64,000 nt of DNA, taken from sequence record PZ509022.1. One strand, given 5' to 3'. This document shows positions 1,830 through 40,184 of the stretch, piece by piece. This DNA comes from a phage. Within the stretch, counting starts at the first letter, position 1. Every line of letters starts with the position of its first letter. Below the pieces are notes generated by a model, which searched no databases, was not told where the DNA came from, and was given only the letters and a program-made list of their open reading frames with translations. The translations under genes were made by a program, and so were the position numbers.

Positions 1830-3512
1830 TTAAACCATTACAGTAAATCGACCAACTTTCTTCATTTGAAGATGCTGACCGTATGCTTGTGGGTCATGGT
1901 CTCTATGCGAAATAACAAAAACATTAGTATTTTTTAAACTATCTAAAATAGTTGAAATAGCTTTTACACCTTCAACGTCGGTCGCTGAATCAAAAACTTC
2001 ATCAAGAATTAGTGTGTTTATTTTAACACCTGAAACTTTTTCAGCAATATCACGCCAAGTAAATAAAATAGCAATATCAATTCGTGCTTTTTCACCTTGA
2101 CTGAATGAAGCATAACTAAAATCTTCACGACCACGGGATTTAATTGTCTCATTAAATTCTTCATCTAATGTAAACACATAATCCGCTTCCATTATTTTAA
2201 GATAATAGTTAATCTGCTTATTAAATAATGGAATGTACTTTTTAATAATAGCACCTTTAATACCAGAATCTTTGAGCATATCAGTCAAAATTCCTCGGTG
2301 GTATTTTTCCATTACTAAATTAGTTTTTGTCTTAACAATTTTATCAAGTTCTTCTTGAAGCAGTGCTATTTCATCAGCATGGTCAATAAACTCAGAAGAT
2401 GCTTTTTCTATAGCCGCTTTAACTTTTTTAGCTTTATCTACTGCTGCGATCAGAGATTGCTTTTTATTGCGAATATCATTTGCCAACGACTGCTGAGTTT
2501 TAATATTATCTCGGTATTCATCAACAAGAACTTTTAAATTATCACGATGTGTTGAAAGCTGTTCAAACGAATGCGTGCATTCAGAAACTTTATCTTTAAT
2601 TTTAGAAACAACTTTATCACCGGAACTCAATTGTGACAAACAGGTTGGACATAATCCACCTTCGTGATACATATTAATGACTTTATTATACGAGTCAATT
2701 TTTGATTTAATTAAAACTGCTTCTTGACCGATTTTATTAAATGCATCAGTCGGGTCTTCATCTAAAACAATATTAACTAATCTTTCATTAGCTTCTTCTA
2801 TTTCCGATTTTAGCGTTCTAGCTTCTTTTGCCAAATCATCATACATATTTTGCAGACGAGTAAGGTTGTCACCAGTTAATTTTTTCTGGCGTTCAACATT
2901 ATCATTATATATTTTAATTTGTTGGATAATACTATCTTTTTTAACATCAAGCACTTGGTTTTGTGAATTTAATTCACGTATTAGTGCTTTATTAAGCTTA
3001 TCCATTTCAGCTAATGTTCCTACCTCAAGCAGGTCTTCCACAAGCTTTCTTCGTGCAGGGGTCGACAAACCCATGAAAGGGGTATACCCTGCTGTACCAA
3101 GGACAACAATCTGCTTGAAACTGGCATATGACATTCCGATAAGCTGTTCAAATTCTGCTTGGAAATCTTTACTGCTGGCAGATTCATTAAGACGTGTACC
3201 GTTAACGGTGATTTCAAAAACGTTCGGTTTTTGTCCTCTTTTGATATAGTACTTTTTCTCATCATATTCCATCCACAGTTCAACTAAAAGTTCTTTCTTA
3301 TTTGTGCTGTTTATTAATTGACCTTTCTTTACATCACGAAATGGCTTGCCAAAAAGCCCAAATGTGATGGCTTCTAACATAGTAGACTTACCACCGCCAT
3401 TTCGGCCAGTAATAAGAGTTTTTTGAACCTTATCTAATTGAATGTCAATCCCATTTTGACCAACTGACATTATATTTTTATATTTTACTCTATTAAGTTT
3501 AAAATTCTTCAC
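1830..3512 (-). CDS. 46: Recombination endonuclease subunit gp46 (Rad50/SbcC-like ATPase)
   Basis: 560-aa ORF; N-terminal Walker A GRNGGGKST, long central coiled coil with CPTC zinc hook, C-terminal signature and Walker B (LILDEVFD). Confidence 0.95.
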   Translation of the reverse strand: MKNFKLNRVKYKNIMSVGQNGIDIQLDKVQKTLITGRNGGGKSTMLEAITFGLFGKPFRDVKKGQLINSTNKKELLVELWMEYDEKKYYIKRGQKPNVFEITVNGTRLNESASSKDFQAEFEQLIGMSYASFKQIVVLGTAGYTPFMGLSTPARRKLVEDLLEVGTLAEMDKLNKALIRELNSQNQVLDVKKDSIIQQIKIYNDNVERQKKLTGDNLTRLQNMYDDLAKEARTLKSEIEEANERLVNIVLDEDPTDAFNKIGQEAVLIKSKIDSYNKVINMYHEGGLCPTCLSQLSSGDKVVSKIKDKVSECTHSFEQLSTHRDNLKVLVDEYRDNIKTQQSLANDIRNKKQSLIAAVDKAKKVKAAIEKASSEFIDHADEIALLQEELDKIVKTKTNLVMEKYHRGILTDMLKDSGIKGAIIKKYIPLFNKQINYYLKIMEADYVFTLDEEFNETIKSRGREDFSYASFSQGEKARIDIAILFTWRDIAEKVSGVKINTLILDEVFDSATDVEGVKAISTILDSLKNTNVFVISHRDHDPQAYGQHLQMKKVGRFTVMV

Positions 3513-4975: not shown

Positions 4976-5112
4976 ATATCAAGAACCGTCATTGAAATGC
5001 AAAATAAAATTATTGAAATAAATCCATCTGGAGTGCTAAAGAACCCAATCCAACATGCTCTAGTGAATAGATAAAATGCAAGAAAAAGTATCACATATCC
5101 AAGAAATATCAT
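4972..5112 (-). CDS. Small hydrophobic protein (47.1-like), about 46 aa
   Basis: Hand-translated ORF MIFLGYVILFLAFYLFTRACWIGFF..., ATG at 5112-5110, stop overlaps the gene 47 start (ATGA); below the ORF-track size cutoff. Confidence 0.45.
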   Translation of the reverse strand: MIFLGYVILFLAFYLFTRACWIGFFSTPDGFISIILFCISMTVLDI

Positions 5113-5138
5113 TATATCAAACTCCGTATAAAGCTAAA

Positions 5139-5150
5139 GGGCCGAAGCCC
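5139..5150 (-). terminator. GC hairpin GGGCCGAAGCCC at the 3' end of a-gt
   Basis: 4-bp GC stem with UUCG tetraloop on the minus-strand RNA, flanked by AAA/TTT, overlapping the a-gt stop. Confidence 0.45.
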
Positions 5151-5151
5151 T

Positions 5152-6354
5152 TTATTTTGTAATAATGTCAAACTGTTCTTTAAAGCAGAAGCTTGAATCT
5201 TGATGCTGATACAAAAATTCATATGCTTTTTCTCGCTCACGGTCATAAAGAGCTCTGTCAGATGACAGTTCTTTAATACGCTCGAATGTTGATTCCATGT
5301 CATTTTCATCAAACCAAATGATACCGCTATCATGCGAGGTCAAAGGAGTATTATCAACACGGAATTTTAAATTTTCGCCAGTAGATTTCCAGAAAACAGG
5401 AATTGTACCGCAAGCACCTAATTCAAGATGAGTATATTCTAGTGAGCGTTGTAAGTATTTCTGGTTAAGTTTACTCAACTGATATCCAAAGCCAGATTTA
5501 CTCATTCGTTCAAGCATTTCACTATTAATATAACAATCTAGGATTTGTGCCGGTTGATTCGGCGTGAGATTCATTTTATCGATCTCACGATTACCGTAAT
5601 ATTCATACGGAATACCTTTTTCCTTAATTGCAATAAAAGCAGGGGAACGTTCAAGACCTTCCATTACAGTGGATTTACCAGCAGGTTTTAAGAATTTTTC
5701 ATGAAAATCAAACATCTGATAAAAACCTTTCCATGTAGTCGTACGACCAATCCAACGGTTGATGTTCATGTTAATTTCAGAAACATCTTTCCAATAAGTT
5801 GACCGAACCTTCGCAATATCCATAGGAGGCTGAAAGTTATATACTGTTGGTGCTTCTTCAATATCATCAAACAGAGAAACAGTTTCTGGATACCATTCTT
5901 TCATCAAAACTTTATTAAAATCGCCATTATCAGAATGACTAAAAATAACATCAGCTCGACGAACAGTTTCTTCTAATCCCAAATTTCGACGCAAAGAAAG
6001 AACAGAATGATCATGCTGATAAACTACAACACGAATAGAAGGTTTAATATTATCTAAAAGTTTTTTATAGTTATTAATCGTGGCTTCTTGAACGGAAGTA
6101 GCAGGAACAGAATTAATAATTAGAATATCACAATCATTTACCAGCTTAAGTGCTTTATCGTATTCTTTAGCTAAAATAACTGGAATTGAAAATGATTTGT
6201 GGTCATGAGAACTTGTACGAGTAAATGATTTATCTTTAGCATAAACCAAAGTTACTTCATGACCATTTTTAATAAACCAATCACGCTGCTCAAGAGAAAA
6301 TTTAGTTACACCGCAACCTTCAAGACCTCGAGCCATAAAAATACATACTTTCAT
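5152..6354 (-). CDS. a-gt: DNA alpha-glucosyltransferase
   Basis: 400-aa ORF in the T4 a-gt position between 47 and 55; translation consistent with the T4 AGT sequence as I recall it. Confidence 0.88.
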   Translation of the reverse strand: MKVCIFMARGLEGCGVTKFSLEQRDWFIKNGHEVTLVYAKDKSFTRTSSHDHKSFSIPVILAKEYDKALKLVNDCDILIINSVPATSVQEATINNYKKLLDNIKPSIRVVVYQHDHSVLSLRRNLGLEETVRRADVIFSHSDNGDFNKVLMKEWYPETVSLFDDIEEAPTVYNFQPPMDIAKVRSTYWKDVSEINMNINRWIGRTTTWKGFYQMFDFHEKFLKPAGKSTVMEGLERSPAFIAIKEKGIPYEYYGNREIDKMNLTPNQPAQILDCYINSEMLERMSKSGFGYQLSKLNQKYLQRSLEYTHLELGACGTIPVFWKSTGENLKFRVDNTPLTSHDSGIIWFDENDMESTFERIKELSSDRALYDREREKAYEFLYQHQDSSFCFKEQFDIITK

Positions 6355-10393: not shown

Positions 10394-10864
10394 TTAATCA
10401 TGTTTCCACACCCCATCGGTATTTGACCAAAGCCGCTGATTATCTGATCCTCGCCACAGCTTTTTAGTCGGAAGATTTTTCTCATACTTCCCATCAATAA
10501 TAACATCAACATATTTAAGCATTTCTAGCTGTTTAACATCTTCAAACTTATATCCTGTCCACAACCAAATGCTTTTATTGGGATAAAGATTTTTTACTGT
10601 TTGAACAATGCAATGAATAACATCTCGGTTATCAGGATAGAGAGGGTCACCTCCAGTTATAGTCAATCCTTCTATATAATCATTATTCAAACATTCAATT
10701 AATTGTTCTAGTGTTTCACCAGTGAATGGAATACCATTTCTAGCATTCCATGTTGATTTATTATAACACCCTTCGCATTTATGCAAACAACCTGTAACGA
10801 AAAGAACGACCCTGCAACCAGGGCCATTCACAAAATCGCAAGGATAAAATCTATCATAATTCAT
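10394..10864 (-). CDS. nrdG: Anaerobic ribonucleotide reductase activating protein NrdG (radical SAM)
   Basis: 156-aa ORF with the CxxxCxxC cluster (GCLHKCEGCYN); overlaps the nrdD stop. Confidence 0.9.
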   Translation of the reverse strand: MNYDRFYPCDFVNGPGCRVVLFVTGCLHKCEGCYNKSTWNARNGIPFTGETLEQLIECLNNDYIEGLTITGGDPLYPDNRDVIHCIVQTVKNLYPNKSIWLWTGYKFEDVKQLEMLKYVDVIIDGKYEKNLPTKKLWRGSDNQRLWSNTDGVWKHD

Positions 10865-12678
10865 TGGTGTTTAACCCTATGCATGATTTCTTTATTTTTA
10901 CCGAGATTAAATCCGCGTTCGTTCGGATTTCCCAAATAACCACATGTTCTTCTTATTGTGTTCATCTTTTTAGGATCAGTTTCTCCACAAATAGAACAAA
11001 CAAATCCGTTTTCAGTAGGAGTCATTTCATGGGTACTTCCGCATGTAAAACATTTATCTACTGGCATATTAACACCAAAATAATCTAAATGTTGTGCAGC
11101 ATAATCCCATACGGCCTCAAGGCCTTTTAAGTTATTTTTCATATCAGGAAGTTCAACATAAGAAATGTGACCACCTGTCGCAATGAAATGATATGGCGCT
11201 TCACGAGAAATCTTTTCAAACGGAGTAATATTTTCTTCTACTGAAACATGGAAACTATTAGTGTACCAGCCTTTATCAGTAACATCCTTTACACTTCCAT
11301 ATTTCTCAGTATCAAGTTTACAGAAGCGATAGCACAGGTTTTCAGCAGGAGTAGAATACAAGCTAAAAGCAAAACCAGTTCTTTCAGTCCACTGCTTAAG
11401 ACGAGCATTCATTTTAGTTAAAATTTCTTGTCCAATATCACGACCGACAAGAATATTCAATTCGTGAATACCAATGTATCCTAGGGACACTGAACTTCTA
11501 CCGTTTTTAAATAACTCAATTATGTCGTCATCAGGTTTAAGACGAACCCCGAATGCACCTTCTTGGTAAAGAATAGGAGCAACAGTAGCTTTAACTCCTT
11601 TTAAGGAACTAATTCTACACATCAAAGCTTCAAAACATAAATCCATTCGTTCATTAAATAGCTCAACAAATTTCTGTTCATTGAATTGTGTTCCAATATA
11701 AGAATCTAACGCGATGCGAGGAAGATTCAGTGTTACAACACCAAGATTATTACGTCCATCAAGAATTTCATTACCAGTCGAATCTTTCCATACGCTCAAG
11801 AAACTACGGCAACCCATTGGAGAAACAGGAACAGATGAACCAGTGATAGCTTTATTGTTCTTAGCTGAAATAATATCAGGATACATCCTTTTGCTTGCAC
11901 ACTCTAGAGCAAGCTGCTTAATATCATAGTTCGGATCGTCTTTGTAAAGATTAACGCCTTCTTCGACGAACATAACAAGCTTAGGGAAAATAGGAGTTAT
12001 CCCATCACGACCGAGACCTTTAATACGATTTTTCAGAATTGCTTTCTGAATCATTCGTTCAGTCCAGTCAGTTCCCGTACCAAATGTAATTGTTACAAAA
12101 GGCGTTTGTCCGTTTGAACTAAAGAGAGTATTTACTTCATATTCATAAGCTTGGAATGCATCGTATACGTCTTTTTCTGTTTTAGATTGAGCATAATTCA
12201 ACGCATCAGCGATTTGCCATTTTTCTGCATCCTCAATATGTTTTGCATATGTGCGTTTAACATAAGGAGAAAGTACTTTATCTACATTAGCAAAAGTCGT
12301 TCCGCCGTATTGGTGAGAAGCAACCTGTGCAGTAATTTGTGCCATAATTGCAGTAGCAACGCCAATTGATTTAGGAGTTTCAATTTGAGCATTGCCTAAT
12401 TTAAATCCATTCTCAAGCATTCCTTTTAAATCTACTAAACAGCAATTAGTAAAAGGCAATGATATACTGTAATCTAAATCGTGAAAATGAATTAATCCGA
12501 CATTATGAGCATTTACAATATGGCTCGGAAGAATACTACAAGCGATATGTTTAGAAACAATACCGGCCATTAAATCTCTTTTTGTTGGAAAGACACGAGA
12601 ATCTTTGTTGGCATTTTCGGTATTTAATTCTTTATCTTTATTTGAAATAAAATTTAAAACATCTTTCTCTAAAGACAT
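10861..12678 (-). CDS. nrdD: Anaerobic ribonucleoside-triphosphate reductase NrdD, uninterrupted
   Basis: 605-aa continuous ORF with the C-terminal glycyl radical motif RRTCGYLG and zinc-ribbon cysteines; no intron-like interruption. Confidence 0.95.
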   Translation of the reverse strand: MSLEKDVLNFISNKDKELNTENANKDSRVFPTKRDLMAGIVSKHIACSILPSHIVNAHNVGLIHFHDLDYSISLPFTNCCLVDLKGMLENGFKLGNAQIETPKSIGVATAIMAQITAQVASHQYGGTTFANVDKVLSPYVKRTYAKHIEDAEKWQIADALNYAQSKTEKDVYDAFQAYEYEVNTLFSSNGQTPFVTITFGTGTDWTERMIQKAILKNRIKGLGRDGITPIFPKLVMFVEEGVNLYKDDPNYDIKQLALECASKRMYPDIISAKNNKAITGSSVPVSPMGCRSFLSVWKDSTGNEILDGRNNLGVVTLNLPRIALDSYIGTQFNEQKFVELFNERMDLCFEALMCRISSLKGVKATVAPILYQEGAFGVRLKPDDDIIELFKNGRSSVSLGYIGIHELNILVGRDIGQEILTKMNARLKQWTERTGFAFSLYSTPAENLCYRFCKLDTEKYGSVKDVTDKGWYTNSFHVSVEENITPFEKISREAPYHFIATGGHISYVELPDMKNNLKGLEAVWDYAAQHLDYFGVNMPVDKCFTCGSTHEMTPTENGFVCSICGETDPKKMNTIRRTCGYLGNPNERGFNLGKNKEIMHRVKHQ

Positions 12679-13490
12679 AATTCTAATTTATCCTTTTGAA
12701 ATTCTTCGTCTAAATATGGGTTCCAACCCATTTTAAACCTTTTGATGAAATTATCAATTCTAAATTTCGGTAAATTTAACTCCGCAAAAATAGATGATTT
12801 ACTTTTAAAATCTGGACCTAAATAATCATATAAAATTTCTGCGTATTTTAACCATAATATATAAGTACCAGATTTAATTGCTCTAGGAGTTTTCCAAGGT
12901 TTTACGCCGTACATCGGATTTCCACTTCCTTTATGCCTGATAGAAGATGAAATTCCAATTTTAATTTTAGCTTCCTTTGTGTGCGAAAATCCATGATGTG
13001 GATTTTCTTTCCAGTATTTTTTAGAAGCTTCTGATATTTTCTTTCTGGCTAAATTAGTATGATGCTTTCCATAAAATCCATGATTTTTACCTTTATTACG
13101 ATTTCTTTTAATCATGGTTATTGATTGCTTTTCTCTAGTTTCTTTAGAAGGGGAAACACCGTACGTTGTAAATTGACCATTAGCATATGCTAAATTAAAA
13201 TACTCTTTATTCCATATATCTTTTTCTATATTCTTTTGAAATTCAGCTTCAATGCTAGTTATTTGTTCATCTCCGACTAATTGAAAATATAATATTTCAA
13301 CTTTCGGTGTTTCTTTCAACAGAGCTTTTTGAAATTCGGAAGATGACGAAGACGAATAATAAAATTTACCATTTTTATCAATAATATTCGTTCCGTCAAA
13401 AGTGCAATTGGTTTTACTTCCAATATAATAATATGGCGGGGTTTTAGCATTAATTCTACTAATAAATGATAGTTTATATACTACATTCAT
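12669..13490 (-). CDS. Seg-like GIY-YIG family homing endonuclease (freestanding)
   Basis: 273-aa ORF; N-terminus VVYKLSF...YYYIGSKTN resembles the GIY-YIG motif; C-terminal basic repeats (GKHHTNLARKKISEA, GFSHTKEAKIKIG) resemble NUMOD3 DNA-binding modules; stop overlaps the nrdD start. Confidence 0.65.
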   Translation of the reverse strand: MNVVYKLSFISRINAKTPPYYYIGSKTNCTFDGTNIIDKNGKFYYSSSSSSEFQKALLKETPKVEILYFQLVGDEQITSIEAEFQKNIEKDIWNKEYFNLAYANGQFTTYGVSPSKETREKQSITMIKRNRNKGKNHGFYGKHHTNLARKKISEASKKYWKENPHHGFSHTKEAKIKIGISSSIRHKGSGNPMYGVKPWKTPRAIKSGTYILWLKYAEILYDYLGPDFKSKSSIFAELNLPKFRIDNFIKRFKMGWNPYLDEEFQKDKLELCL

Positions 13491-13960
13491 TTTAAACTCT
13501 TTCTAAGCTGCTTCTTAAATGAAGCTATTAACTGTGTTTTGGTGTCAGATTCATTATATTCAAATCCTCTTTGAAGCATCTCAGCCATCATTTCCTCTTT
13601 TCCTAAACGAGAAAATTCCTTTGATTTATCTCCAACAAAGTTAGGGTGAATATTATTTTGGGTGTAATCGGATTTTAAATAAGTAAGTAAATTTTCTAAC
13701 CATTCAAGATAATCAACACCTTGACCCTTTAAGCCAGAACGATTAAATTTATGCTTCATTTGACCTTCCGCTGCATTGCAGAGATTACAGAGCAATCCAC
13801 GTACCTTTCCTGCTTTTGGTCCATTTAATTCATGATCATGGTCAAGGTGATTAGCTTGAACATCAGGATTTAGTTCTCGTTGGCAAATTAAGCATTTACC
13901 GTTTTGTGCATCATAAAATTTCTGTTTTTCTTCTTTATATAATTTGCCAGTCAATAACAT
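13487..13960 (-). CDS. 49: Endonuclease VII (Holliday junction resolvase) gp49
   Basis: 157-aa ORF; matches T4 endo VII including the zinc-binding cysteines (CLICQ...CNLCN). Confidence 0.92.
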   Translation of the reverse strand: MLLTGKLYKEEKQKFYDAQNGKCLICQRELNPDVQANHLDHDHELNGPKAGKVRGLLCNLCNAAEGQMKHKFNRSGLKGQGVDYLEWLENLLTYLKSDYTQNNIHPNFVGDKSKEFSRLGKEEMMAEMLQRGFEYNESDTKTQLIASFKKQLRKSLK

Positions 13961-14001
13961 AATAAACCCTTACCTTAAATAGATAAGGGTATTTATTATT
14001 T

Positions 14002-39530: not shown

Positions 39531-39538
39531 TATTTATA
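39531..39538 (-). promoter_or_regulatory. Late-promoter-like TATAAATA box (minus strand) at the segB 3' end / tRNA-Ser 5' junction
   Basis: Plus strand tatttata at 39531-39538, about 4-11 nt upstream of the tRNA-Ser 5' end. Confidence 0.35.
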
Positions 39539-40184
39539 TATTGTTAATTTGATTTAGAATTCTTTTTGCTTGAGTATGACTTACACCAATATGCTTAGCA
39601 TATTTAGATAATTCACCACGCTTAGAAAAATCATATAATTTAGAAATTTCTATTCTTCTTTTTCTTTCATCCGCCGAAACTTTTGCTTCGTTTGCTTTTG
39701 CTATTTTACGTTTAGCTTCTTGAGAGTGAGTTTTACCAGCAAAGCCATTCTTCATTAATCCATTTGAAGACCATCCTTTTAATTTTCCGTTAGAATGTGC
39801 CTTTTTAACACCCAATGAAATTAATTCGCGTTGCTGGTCTGTCATAGGATAATTATTTATATGATCCCATCCACCTTCACCACCAAGTTTTAAATTATAC
39901 ACATCTGGTCTATTTAAAAACTCTTCCGTGACAATATTTTTCTCGGCTTCAAGCATAGATTCTTTATCATCAAAATACTCTAATATTTCTTTAGAAAAAT
40001 TTTCTATACCATACTTATCTTGGGCTCTTTTTAATAATTTACCAGAACCCATATATCCATCATCTAAATTTTCGGTAGAATGCACACCAATATAAATTTT
40101 ATTATTAATTTTATTTGTTATTTTATAAAGATAAAAATGCATATCAGTCCCTAATAAAGAACTGAGCGTCTCACGACGAGTCAT
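39534..40184 (-). CDS. segB: GIY-YIG homing endonuclease SegB, inserted within the tRNA cluster
   Basis: 216-aa ORF; N-terminal GIY-YIG motif (YLYKITNKINNKIYIGVHS); occupies the gap between tRNA-Gly and tRNA-Ser as segB does in T4. Confidence 0.85.
   Translation of the reverse strand: MTRRETLSSLLGTDMHFYLYKITNKINNKIYIGVHSTENLDDGYMGSGKLLKRAQDKYGIENFSKEILEYFDDKESMLEAEKNIVTEEFLNRPDVYNLKLGGEGGWDHINNYPMTDQQRELISLGVKKAHSNGKLKGWSSNGLMKNGFAGKTHSQEAKRKIAKANEAKVSADERKRRIEISKLYDFSKRGELSKYAKHIGVSHTQAKRILNQINNI

Follow-up and report, generated by a model that had tools for sequence, protein, structure and literature searches.

The stretch of DNA studied here, 64,000 nucleotides (nt) from a phage (sequence record PZ509022.1, in the following referred to as the window), contains an intact open reading frame (ORF) of 273 amino acids (aa) with an ATG start, located between gene 49 and nrdD on the minus strand (12669..13490). 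With a probability of roughly 75%, this ORF encodes an intact homing endonuclease of the SegG branch that spreads by intronless homing, i.e., its product would cut the 5' part of nrdD in relatives without the gene. An earlier examination restricted to the letters of the DNA, termed the sequence-only reading here, had already placed the ORF between gene 49 and nrdD with an overlap into the nrdD start, and had pointed out that nrdD is a single uninterrupted ORF of 605 aa while its T4 counterpart is split by an intron carrying I-TevII. Both descriptions are correct.

With regard to protein family, sequence comparison assigns the ORF product to the freestanding homing endonucleases of the SegG branch within the GIY-YIG family, in agreement with the seg-like GIY-YIG enzyme proposed by the sequence-only reading. 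The ORF matches PHROG 7504, "homing endonuclease" (E 1e-33), the very group that T4 SegG matches over its full length (E 1e-133), and BLASTP aligned the two proteins with 40% identity across the first 128 aa (E 5e-27). The motifs MN-VVY, PPYYYIGSK, Y-x-S-S, E and YFNL-YA are common to both. Foldseek searches against viral models returned gp32.1/SegG-like proteins, a profile-profile comparison of the ORF family with I-TevI, SegA-E and SegH yielded 85% probability (E 6e-6), and the alpha/beta fold characteristic of GIY-YIG nucleases was found for the ORF.

The N-terminal GIY-YIG nuclease domain is of the SegG subtype (~residues 1-105; 13176..13490, minus strand) and features Y5, Y22-I-G24, E81 and N99 in addition to the family-specific residues R12, K26 and Y44-x-x-S47. 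It is followed by a basic linker with two or three NUMOD3 repeats (~residues 113-199; 12894..13154, minus strand), for which binding to the minor groove of DNA is predicted, and by a C-terminal module (~residues 200-273, PWKTPRA ... GWNPYLDEEFQK; 12669..12893, minus strand) that is presumed to determine DNA specificity. NUMOD3-like basic repeats had been noticed in the sequence-only reading, and NUMOD3 is indeed the only domain that Pfam finds in the ORF (E 5e-8, two stretches). The family profile furthermore matches the DNA-binding domain of I-TevI (1I3J) through the NUMOD3 region (E 2e-4). This stretch is missing from T4 SegG, and the added repeats account for the length of 273 aa compared to 210 aa for the T4 protein. 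Over its C-terminal 80 residues, the ORF product shares 41% identity (E 3e-14) with the C-terminus of P0004, a SegG orthologue from another T4-like phage, where it is encoded between gp59 and gp32. Over the C-terminal module the structure model of the ORF is of low confidence, and no zinc-finger or helix-turn-helix match was shown for the ORF. A second protein of 273 aa, P0003 (L006, ENA ERZ13617658 contig, 5001..5822), is encoded between gp5 and a 5.1 homologue of another T4-like phage; its SegG-type nuclease domain is 57% identical and its C-terminal half is unrelated. The combination of the same nuclease domain with a different tail in P0003 is an instance of the usual modular shuffling.

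In the family alignment (A1, 20 sequences), E81, N99 and A103 are invariant, and Y5, R12, Y22, I23, G24, S25, K26, Y44 and S47 are nearly so. The GIY and YIG strands of the ORF, V-V-Y5 and Y22-I23-G24, align with Y6 and Y17-V-G19 of I-TevI. N99 aligns exactly with N90 of the latter enzyme and E81 with E75, with a one-residue register shift in the helix. Among the catalytic Arg, Glu and Asn residues that the sequence-only reading had proposed for alignment, Glu (E81) and Asn (N99) are thus present, while the Arg, treated below, lacks an aligned counterpart. The ORF carries the motif YYSSSS in place of the YxGSS of most relatives; I-TevII has a partly similar motif, YNSSS, after its YIG strand. 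The endonuclease gene is under purifying selection. Among seven gene copies (21 pairs), the ratio of non-synonymous to synonymous substitution rates (dN/dS) amounted to 0.08-0.20 in 19 pairs, and the two higher values, 0.28 and 0.71, stem from pairs with 11 or fewer differences. A full-length ORF is present in the window, in phages JK42, G8, MM02 and Lutter and in one IMG/VR contig.

When carriers are counted at 96% or higher nucleotide identity to the endonuclease gene, it occurs in 50 phage records and is located between 49 and nrdD in every one of them. An intact empty 49/nrdD junction was found in 631 records, corresponding to an occupancy of ~7%, and a scan of IMG/VR revealed only two loci, one of which is phage G8. 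The comparison of this junction among relatives, suggested along with the sequence-only reading, hence shows that the ORF is not at the site in all of them, and the 50 occupied vs. 631 empty junctions agree with its classification as a freestanding homing endonuclease. Sporadic occupancy of one fixed site is what is expected of a mobile element. The gene has also been found outside the genus Tequatrovirus. In the Shigella phage JK42, a member of Mosigvirus, 60-nt blocks from 13490 to ~12460 are 96.7-100% identical to the window, its gene 49 is 63-83% identical and follows the Mosigvirus KMB38 there, and beyond nrdD nt ~340 identity is ~87%. A cassette of 99.5-100% identity inside otherwise genus-typical flanks implies that ~1.1-1.2 kilobase pairs (kb) moved between genera, and the sequence similarity of the copies points to a recent transfer.

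Every copy of the gene travels with a diverged patch of nrdD that comprises nt 1-225 or codons 1-75 (12454..12678, minus strand). The nrdD gene of the window is a chimera of the cassette allele in codons 1-75 and the ordinary Tequatrovirus allele in the remainder: NrdD residues 1-75 are 62% identical to those of T2 while residues 76-200 are 100% identical. On the nucleotide level, the first ~60 nt of nrdD cannot be aligned with T2, identity is ~62% over 12460-12580 and it is back to 98% or higher by ~12340. Fifty positions distinguish eight carriers from three non-carriers in a fixed manner, and all 50 fall within nrdD nt 63-225; on the gene 49 side there are no cassette-specific differences. 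At 90% identity or higher, the patch was encountered only in carriers, in phage OLB35 and in up to two further records. These properties are compatible with an immunity function, the patch presumably representing a cleavage-resistant allele of the target. Its nucleotide divergence of 25-38% also forces recombination to resolve beyond it, such that it is co-inherited with the gene with or without a target. The replacement of the nrdD 5' end accompanying the gene was not included in the sequence-only reading.

Together, the empty, intact, broken and deleted states of the site represent the classical homing-endonuclease cycle. In the copy of phage Manna there is a stop at codon 20, that of Pu-Krd-SF3 has a +1 frameshift near codon 245, and SF4 exhibits the same 1-nt length anomaly as Pu-Krd-SF3. 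In Escherichia phage FL18 (PP400780.1, L003 3117..4608), residues 1-201 of the endonuclease are fused to the last ~17 codons of an almost wholly deleted nrdD, and SegH and nrdG follow directly after the fusion, which implies that a phage equipped with endonuclease genes on both sides of nrdD has lost nrdD itself. Escherichia phage OLB35 (MH992122.1, L008 ~2480..2530), on the other hand, lost the endonuclease gene itself by a deletion of ~812 nt. There, the first seven endonuclease codons are joined in frame to nrdD codon 8 (NrdD starts MNVVYKL-LYFISNKD), direct coupling of nrdD to gene 49 is restored and the diverged patch is kept, with the carrier allele at nearly all distinguishing positions. 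Decay was seen only in a few phages other than that of the window, namely Manna, Pu-Krd-SF3, FL18 and OLB35.

A more distant homologue is found on a Logan contig (SRR27536177, referred to as L018) from a T4-like phage whose NrdD residues 76-200 are 78% identical to those of the window. In its 2188..3180 region gene 49 is followed by a 55-codon remnant of a native nrdD 5' end, by the endonuclease homologue (58% identical, frameshifted after ~residue 45) and by a complete nrdD with its own 5' end, so that the 5' part of nrdD is present twice. The remnant is still coupled to the gene 49 stop and ends at nrdD nt ~165, i.e., within the most diverged part of the patch, at an ATGAA microhomology that is joined directly to the endonuclease start codon. 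This arrangement is possibly the footprint of a break that was repaired illegitimately on one side; an assembly artefact is possible, too. Judging from this junction, the favored cleavage position in phages without the gene would be at nrdD nt ~150-180, corresponding to 12499..12529 (minus strand) of the window.

The position of the ORF relative to its neighbors, both of which it overlaps, indicates how it may be expressed. In the empty arrangement of T2, T4 and KMB38, the nrdD ATG is overlapped by the gene 49 stop. The endonuclease ORF begins at the exact position of this ATG, and the gene 49 stop now shares with the endonuclease ATG the same ATGA overlap by which 49 and nrdD are coupled when the site is empty. 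The endonuclease gene has taken over the start codon position otherwise used by nrdD, and with it, probably, translation by coupling to gene 49. The start of nrdD is situated inside the last 10 nt of the endonuclease ORF, and nrdD translation restarts from this ATG. Upon co-infection with a relative lacking the gene, the enzyme would cut within nrdD nt 1-225, possibly near nt 165, and recombinational repair would copy the carrier cassette of ~1.1-1.2 kb, consisting of the gene plus the diverged nrdD codons 1-75, into the cut genome, a process that should bias inheritance in favor of the carrier. The carrier itself would be protected by its diverged codons 1-75, which are presumed uncuttable. 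Intronless homing of this kind has been described for the T4 seg genes (PMC2988022). We tentatively go one step further and propose, with the odds somewhat against us, a self-contained two-part cassette of endonuclease and "immunity" nrdD codons 1-75 that crossed between Tequatrovirus and Mosigvirus and rewrites ~38% of the first 75 NrdD residues each time it spreads, with the L018 remnant marking the cut site at ~nt 165.

Several observations weigh against homing into the 5' part of nrdD by an active enzyme. Pfam PF01541 (GIY-YIG) gave no match for the ORF at E values up to 10, no Arg is present at the ORF position aligned with the catalytic R27 of I-TevI, and a donor of the nrdD patch was not found, any nrdD not linked to the gene being at most ~79% identical. 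The immunity role of the patch is plausible, yet linkage alone is no proof of it. In addition, the OLB35 record is flagged UNVERIFIED in GenBank and the evidence from L018 stems from a single metagenome assembly. The first two points would also fit a remnant in decay that has lost catalysis and simply lingers at the site, and so would the YYSSSS motif where most relatives have YxGSS and the broken copies in some relatives. The missing PF01541 match is, however, a sensitivity limit of the Pfam model on the SegG branch and not evidence against the fold; 19 relatives likewise had no match at E values up to 1. The alignments place the R27 segment of I-TevI in an insertion that all Seg proteins lack, with the same gap in T4 SegA-E and SegG. 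Since most of these, SegG included, are listed as active enzymes in the review by Edgell (PMC2988022), the gap does not indicate decay. K55 of the ORF resides on the helix equivalent to the first, Arg-bearing helix, and in SegG-type nucleases R12 or K26 may stand in for the canonical Arg, which would give a variant GIY-YIG active site. The sequence-only reading had taken the motif as degenerate and a hint at decay, a view that we do not share: the motif is a normal SegG-type variant common to T4 SegG (listed as active, PMC2988022) and in part to I-TevII, E81 and N99 are invariant with Y5 and Y22 nearly so, dN/dS is ~0.1-0.2, several phages contain the full-length ORF and the near identity of the copy from the other genus speaks for a recent transfer. 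All this renders a dead remnant highly improbable.

It is conceivable that the endonuclease is mobile as proposed and the nrdD patch is nothing but hitch-hiking donor DNA, with the cut made elsewhere, e.g., at the original 49/nrdD junction, or in the DNA of carriers and non-carriers alike. The insertion begins on its left side precisely at the nrdD ATG and no alignment is possible for the first 60 nt of nrdD, such that a site spanning the junction would not survive; co-inheritance would follow from the low homology within the patch even without immunity; and SegH is reported to cut the carrier's own DNA as well as that of non-carriers. We nevertheless regard this explanation as unlikely, because the L018 junction lies 165 nt inside nrdD and not at the ATG, the gene 49 side is free of cassette-specific differences, and the cuts made by freestanding T4 endonucleases are hundreds of base pairs away from the enzymes' own genes, not at the insertion site (PMC2988022). 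Purifying selection would also be expected if the protein had been co-opted for a phage function such as keeping out competitors, promoting recombination or amplification in the vicinity of nrdD, or regulating nrdD expression by binding DNA. The start of nrdD translation inside the 3' end of the gene and a sigma-70-like match within the gene ~50 nt upstream of nrdD fit such a role, and according to a 2026 paper SegB promotes the amplification of anti-defense loci. Only ~7% of related genomes carry the gene, though, and several lineages lost or broke it, which speaks against an important host function. The match to a promoter, moreover, is a mere consensus hit in AT-rich DNA, where 17 such matches were found vs. 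10.6 expected. We therefore attach very little weight to co-option and retain intronless homing into nrdD as the preferred explanation.

Upstream of the endonuclease ORF in the window is gene 49 (endonuclease VII; 13487..13960, minus strand). Downstream, nrdD (10861..12678, minus strand; 605 aa, without intron) and nrdG (10394..10864, minus strand), both identified by NCBIfam matches, abut directly. In T4, gene 49 abuts nrdD and mobC is located between nrdD and nrdG; neither mobC nor SegH nor I-TevII is present in the window, and its nrdD/nrdG junction contains neither mobC nor SegH. A promoter of its own is not evident for the endonuclease gene, and the promoter/terminator scan of the region yielded only uninformative consensus matches in AT-rich DNA, among them the sigma-70-like match mentioned above (12757-12730). 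Just upstream of the gene 49 start, a terminator-like hairpin with a 10-bp stem and a T-rich tail (13966..13990, minus strand) was noted, and a terminator is annotated at the equivalent place in related phage records. The window harbors a second freestanding GIY-YIG endonuclease gene (39534..40184, minus strand), the 216-aa product of which shares 83% identity with residues 19-117 of T4 SegB and differs in its N-terminal extension and C-terminal tail.

The gene under study is annotated as "homing endonuclease" in dozens of GenBank records, and for the JK42 copy the deposited name is "SegG homing endonuclease". A literature search of incomplete coverage yielded no account of an endonuclease gene between 49 and nrdD. 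The insertion site is therefore new relative to the literature searched while the enzyme class is well understood, and nothing reported here will surprise a specialist. Besides the nrdD intron with I-TevII, mobC and SegH, the anaerobic ribonucleotide reductase cluster of T-even phages apparently has a fourth independent mobile element in this gene. It offers a clean natural life-cycle series comprising the empty site, the intact cassette, point-inactivated and truncated copies and a deletion that left the linked allele in place. From the patch with its sharp boundaries and the L018 remnant, a specific prediction of the cut site can be derived. In crosses among therapeutic or model T-even phages, the element would act as a marker-exclusion locus.

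A comparable system is SegH (RB3, LZ2, PP01 and others), which replaces mobC and, like the ORF product, is a freestanding GIY-YIG endonuclease encoded in the anaerobic ribonucleotide reductase cluster. An identity of the two was rejected, as SegH is a separate protein (PHROG 314), encoded between nrdD and nrdG, that is similar to the ORF product in the NUMOD3 region only (26% identity, E 0.004) and contains a canonical SegA-E type nuclease domain instead of a SegG-type domain. The second endonuclease gene of FL18, located at the nrdD/nrdG site, matches the segH sequence deposited for RB3 (AY262138.2) with 99.6% identity. SegH co-occurs with the ORF gene in several phages; carriers that also have SegH between nrdD and nrdG are Pu-Krd-SF1/2/5/6/7, Lv5cm, OES_C-3, F26 and fPS-2.

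I-TevII, a GIY-YIG enzyme that acts on nrdD, shares the Y-x-S-S-S motif after the YIG strand with the ORF product. It differs in being intron-encoded, the T4 nrdD intron of ~1033 nt residing at nrdD nt ~537, and is independent of the freestanding ORF gene. In phages Manna and G8, the ORF gene and the nrdD intron with I-TevII are both present, and the intron site is ~310 nt beyond the nrdD segment that travels with the gene. A functional link to an intron-less nrdD, as suggested by the sequence-only reading, was consequently rejected. The co-occurrence of the gene with either SegH or the intron means that at least two mobile elements crowd one 3-kb operon. The empty intron site of the window (nrdD nt ~536-539, at ~12140) is identical to T2 over 90 nt (~12095..12184, nrdD nt 495-585), and the phage thus appears to carry an intact I-TevII homing site. 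I-TevI, the most thoroughly studied of the GIY-YIG homing endonucleases and also intron-encoded, is set apart by its Arg27 helix, which has no aligned counterpart in the ORF product.

The SegF/gene 56 and mobE/nrdB cassettes resemble the present one in that an endonuclease gene is positioned beside a conserved gene and nearby sequence differs between carriers and non-carriers. In these systems flanking DNA is co-converted, cut sites have been mapped and inheritance bias has been measured, the latter two being predicted for the ORF; a general description of intronless homing cassettes with flanking co-conversion is available (PMC2988022). T4 SegG (gene 32.1) is related to the ORF product in its nuclease domain, which is 40% identical, with both proteins in PHROG 7504, and in its C-terminal module, as shown through the orthologue P0004. 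Orthology was nonetheless rejected, since the ORF is at 49/nrdD in all 50 records while true SegG orthologues are encoded between gp59 and gp32. T4 SegG, at the 59/32 site, targets gene 32, while nrdD is the presumed target at 49/nrdD, and the ORF product of 273 aa is to be seen as a paralogue of the 210-aa T4 enzyme. Both genes apparently lack a promoter and form cassettes fitted tightly to the gene upstream, as has been stated for segG (PMC2988022).

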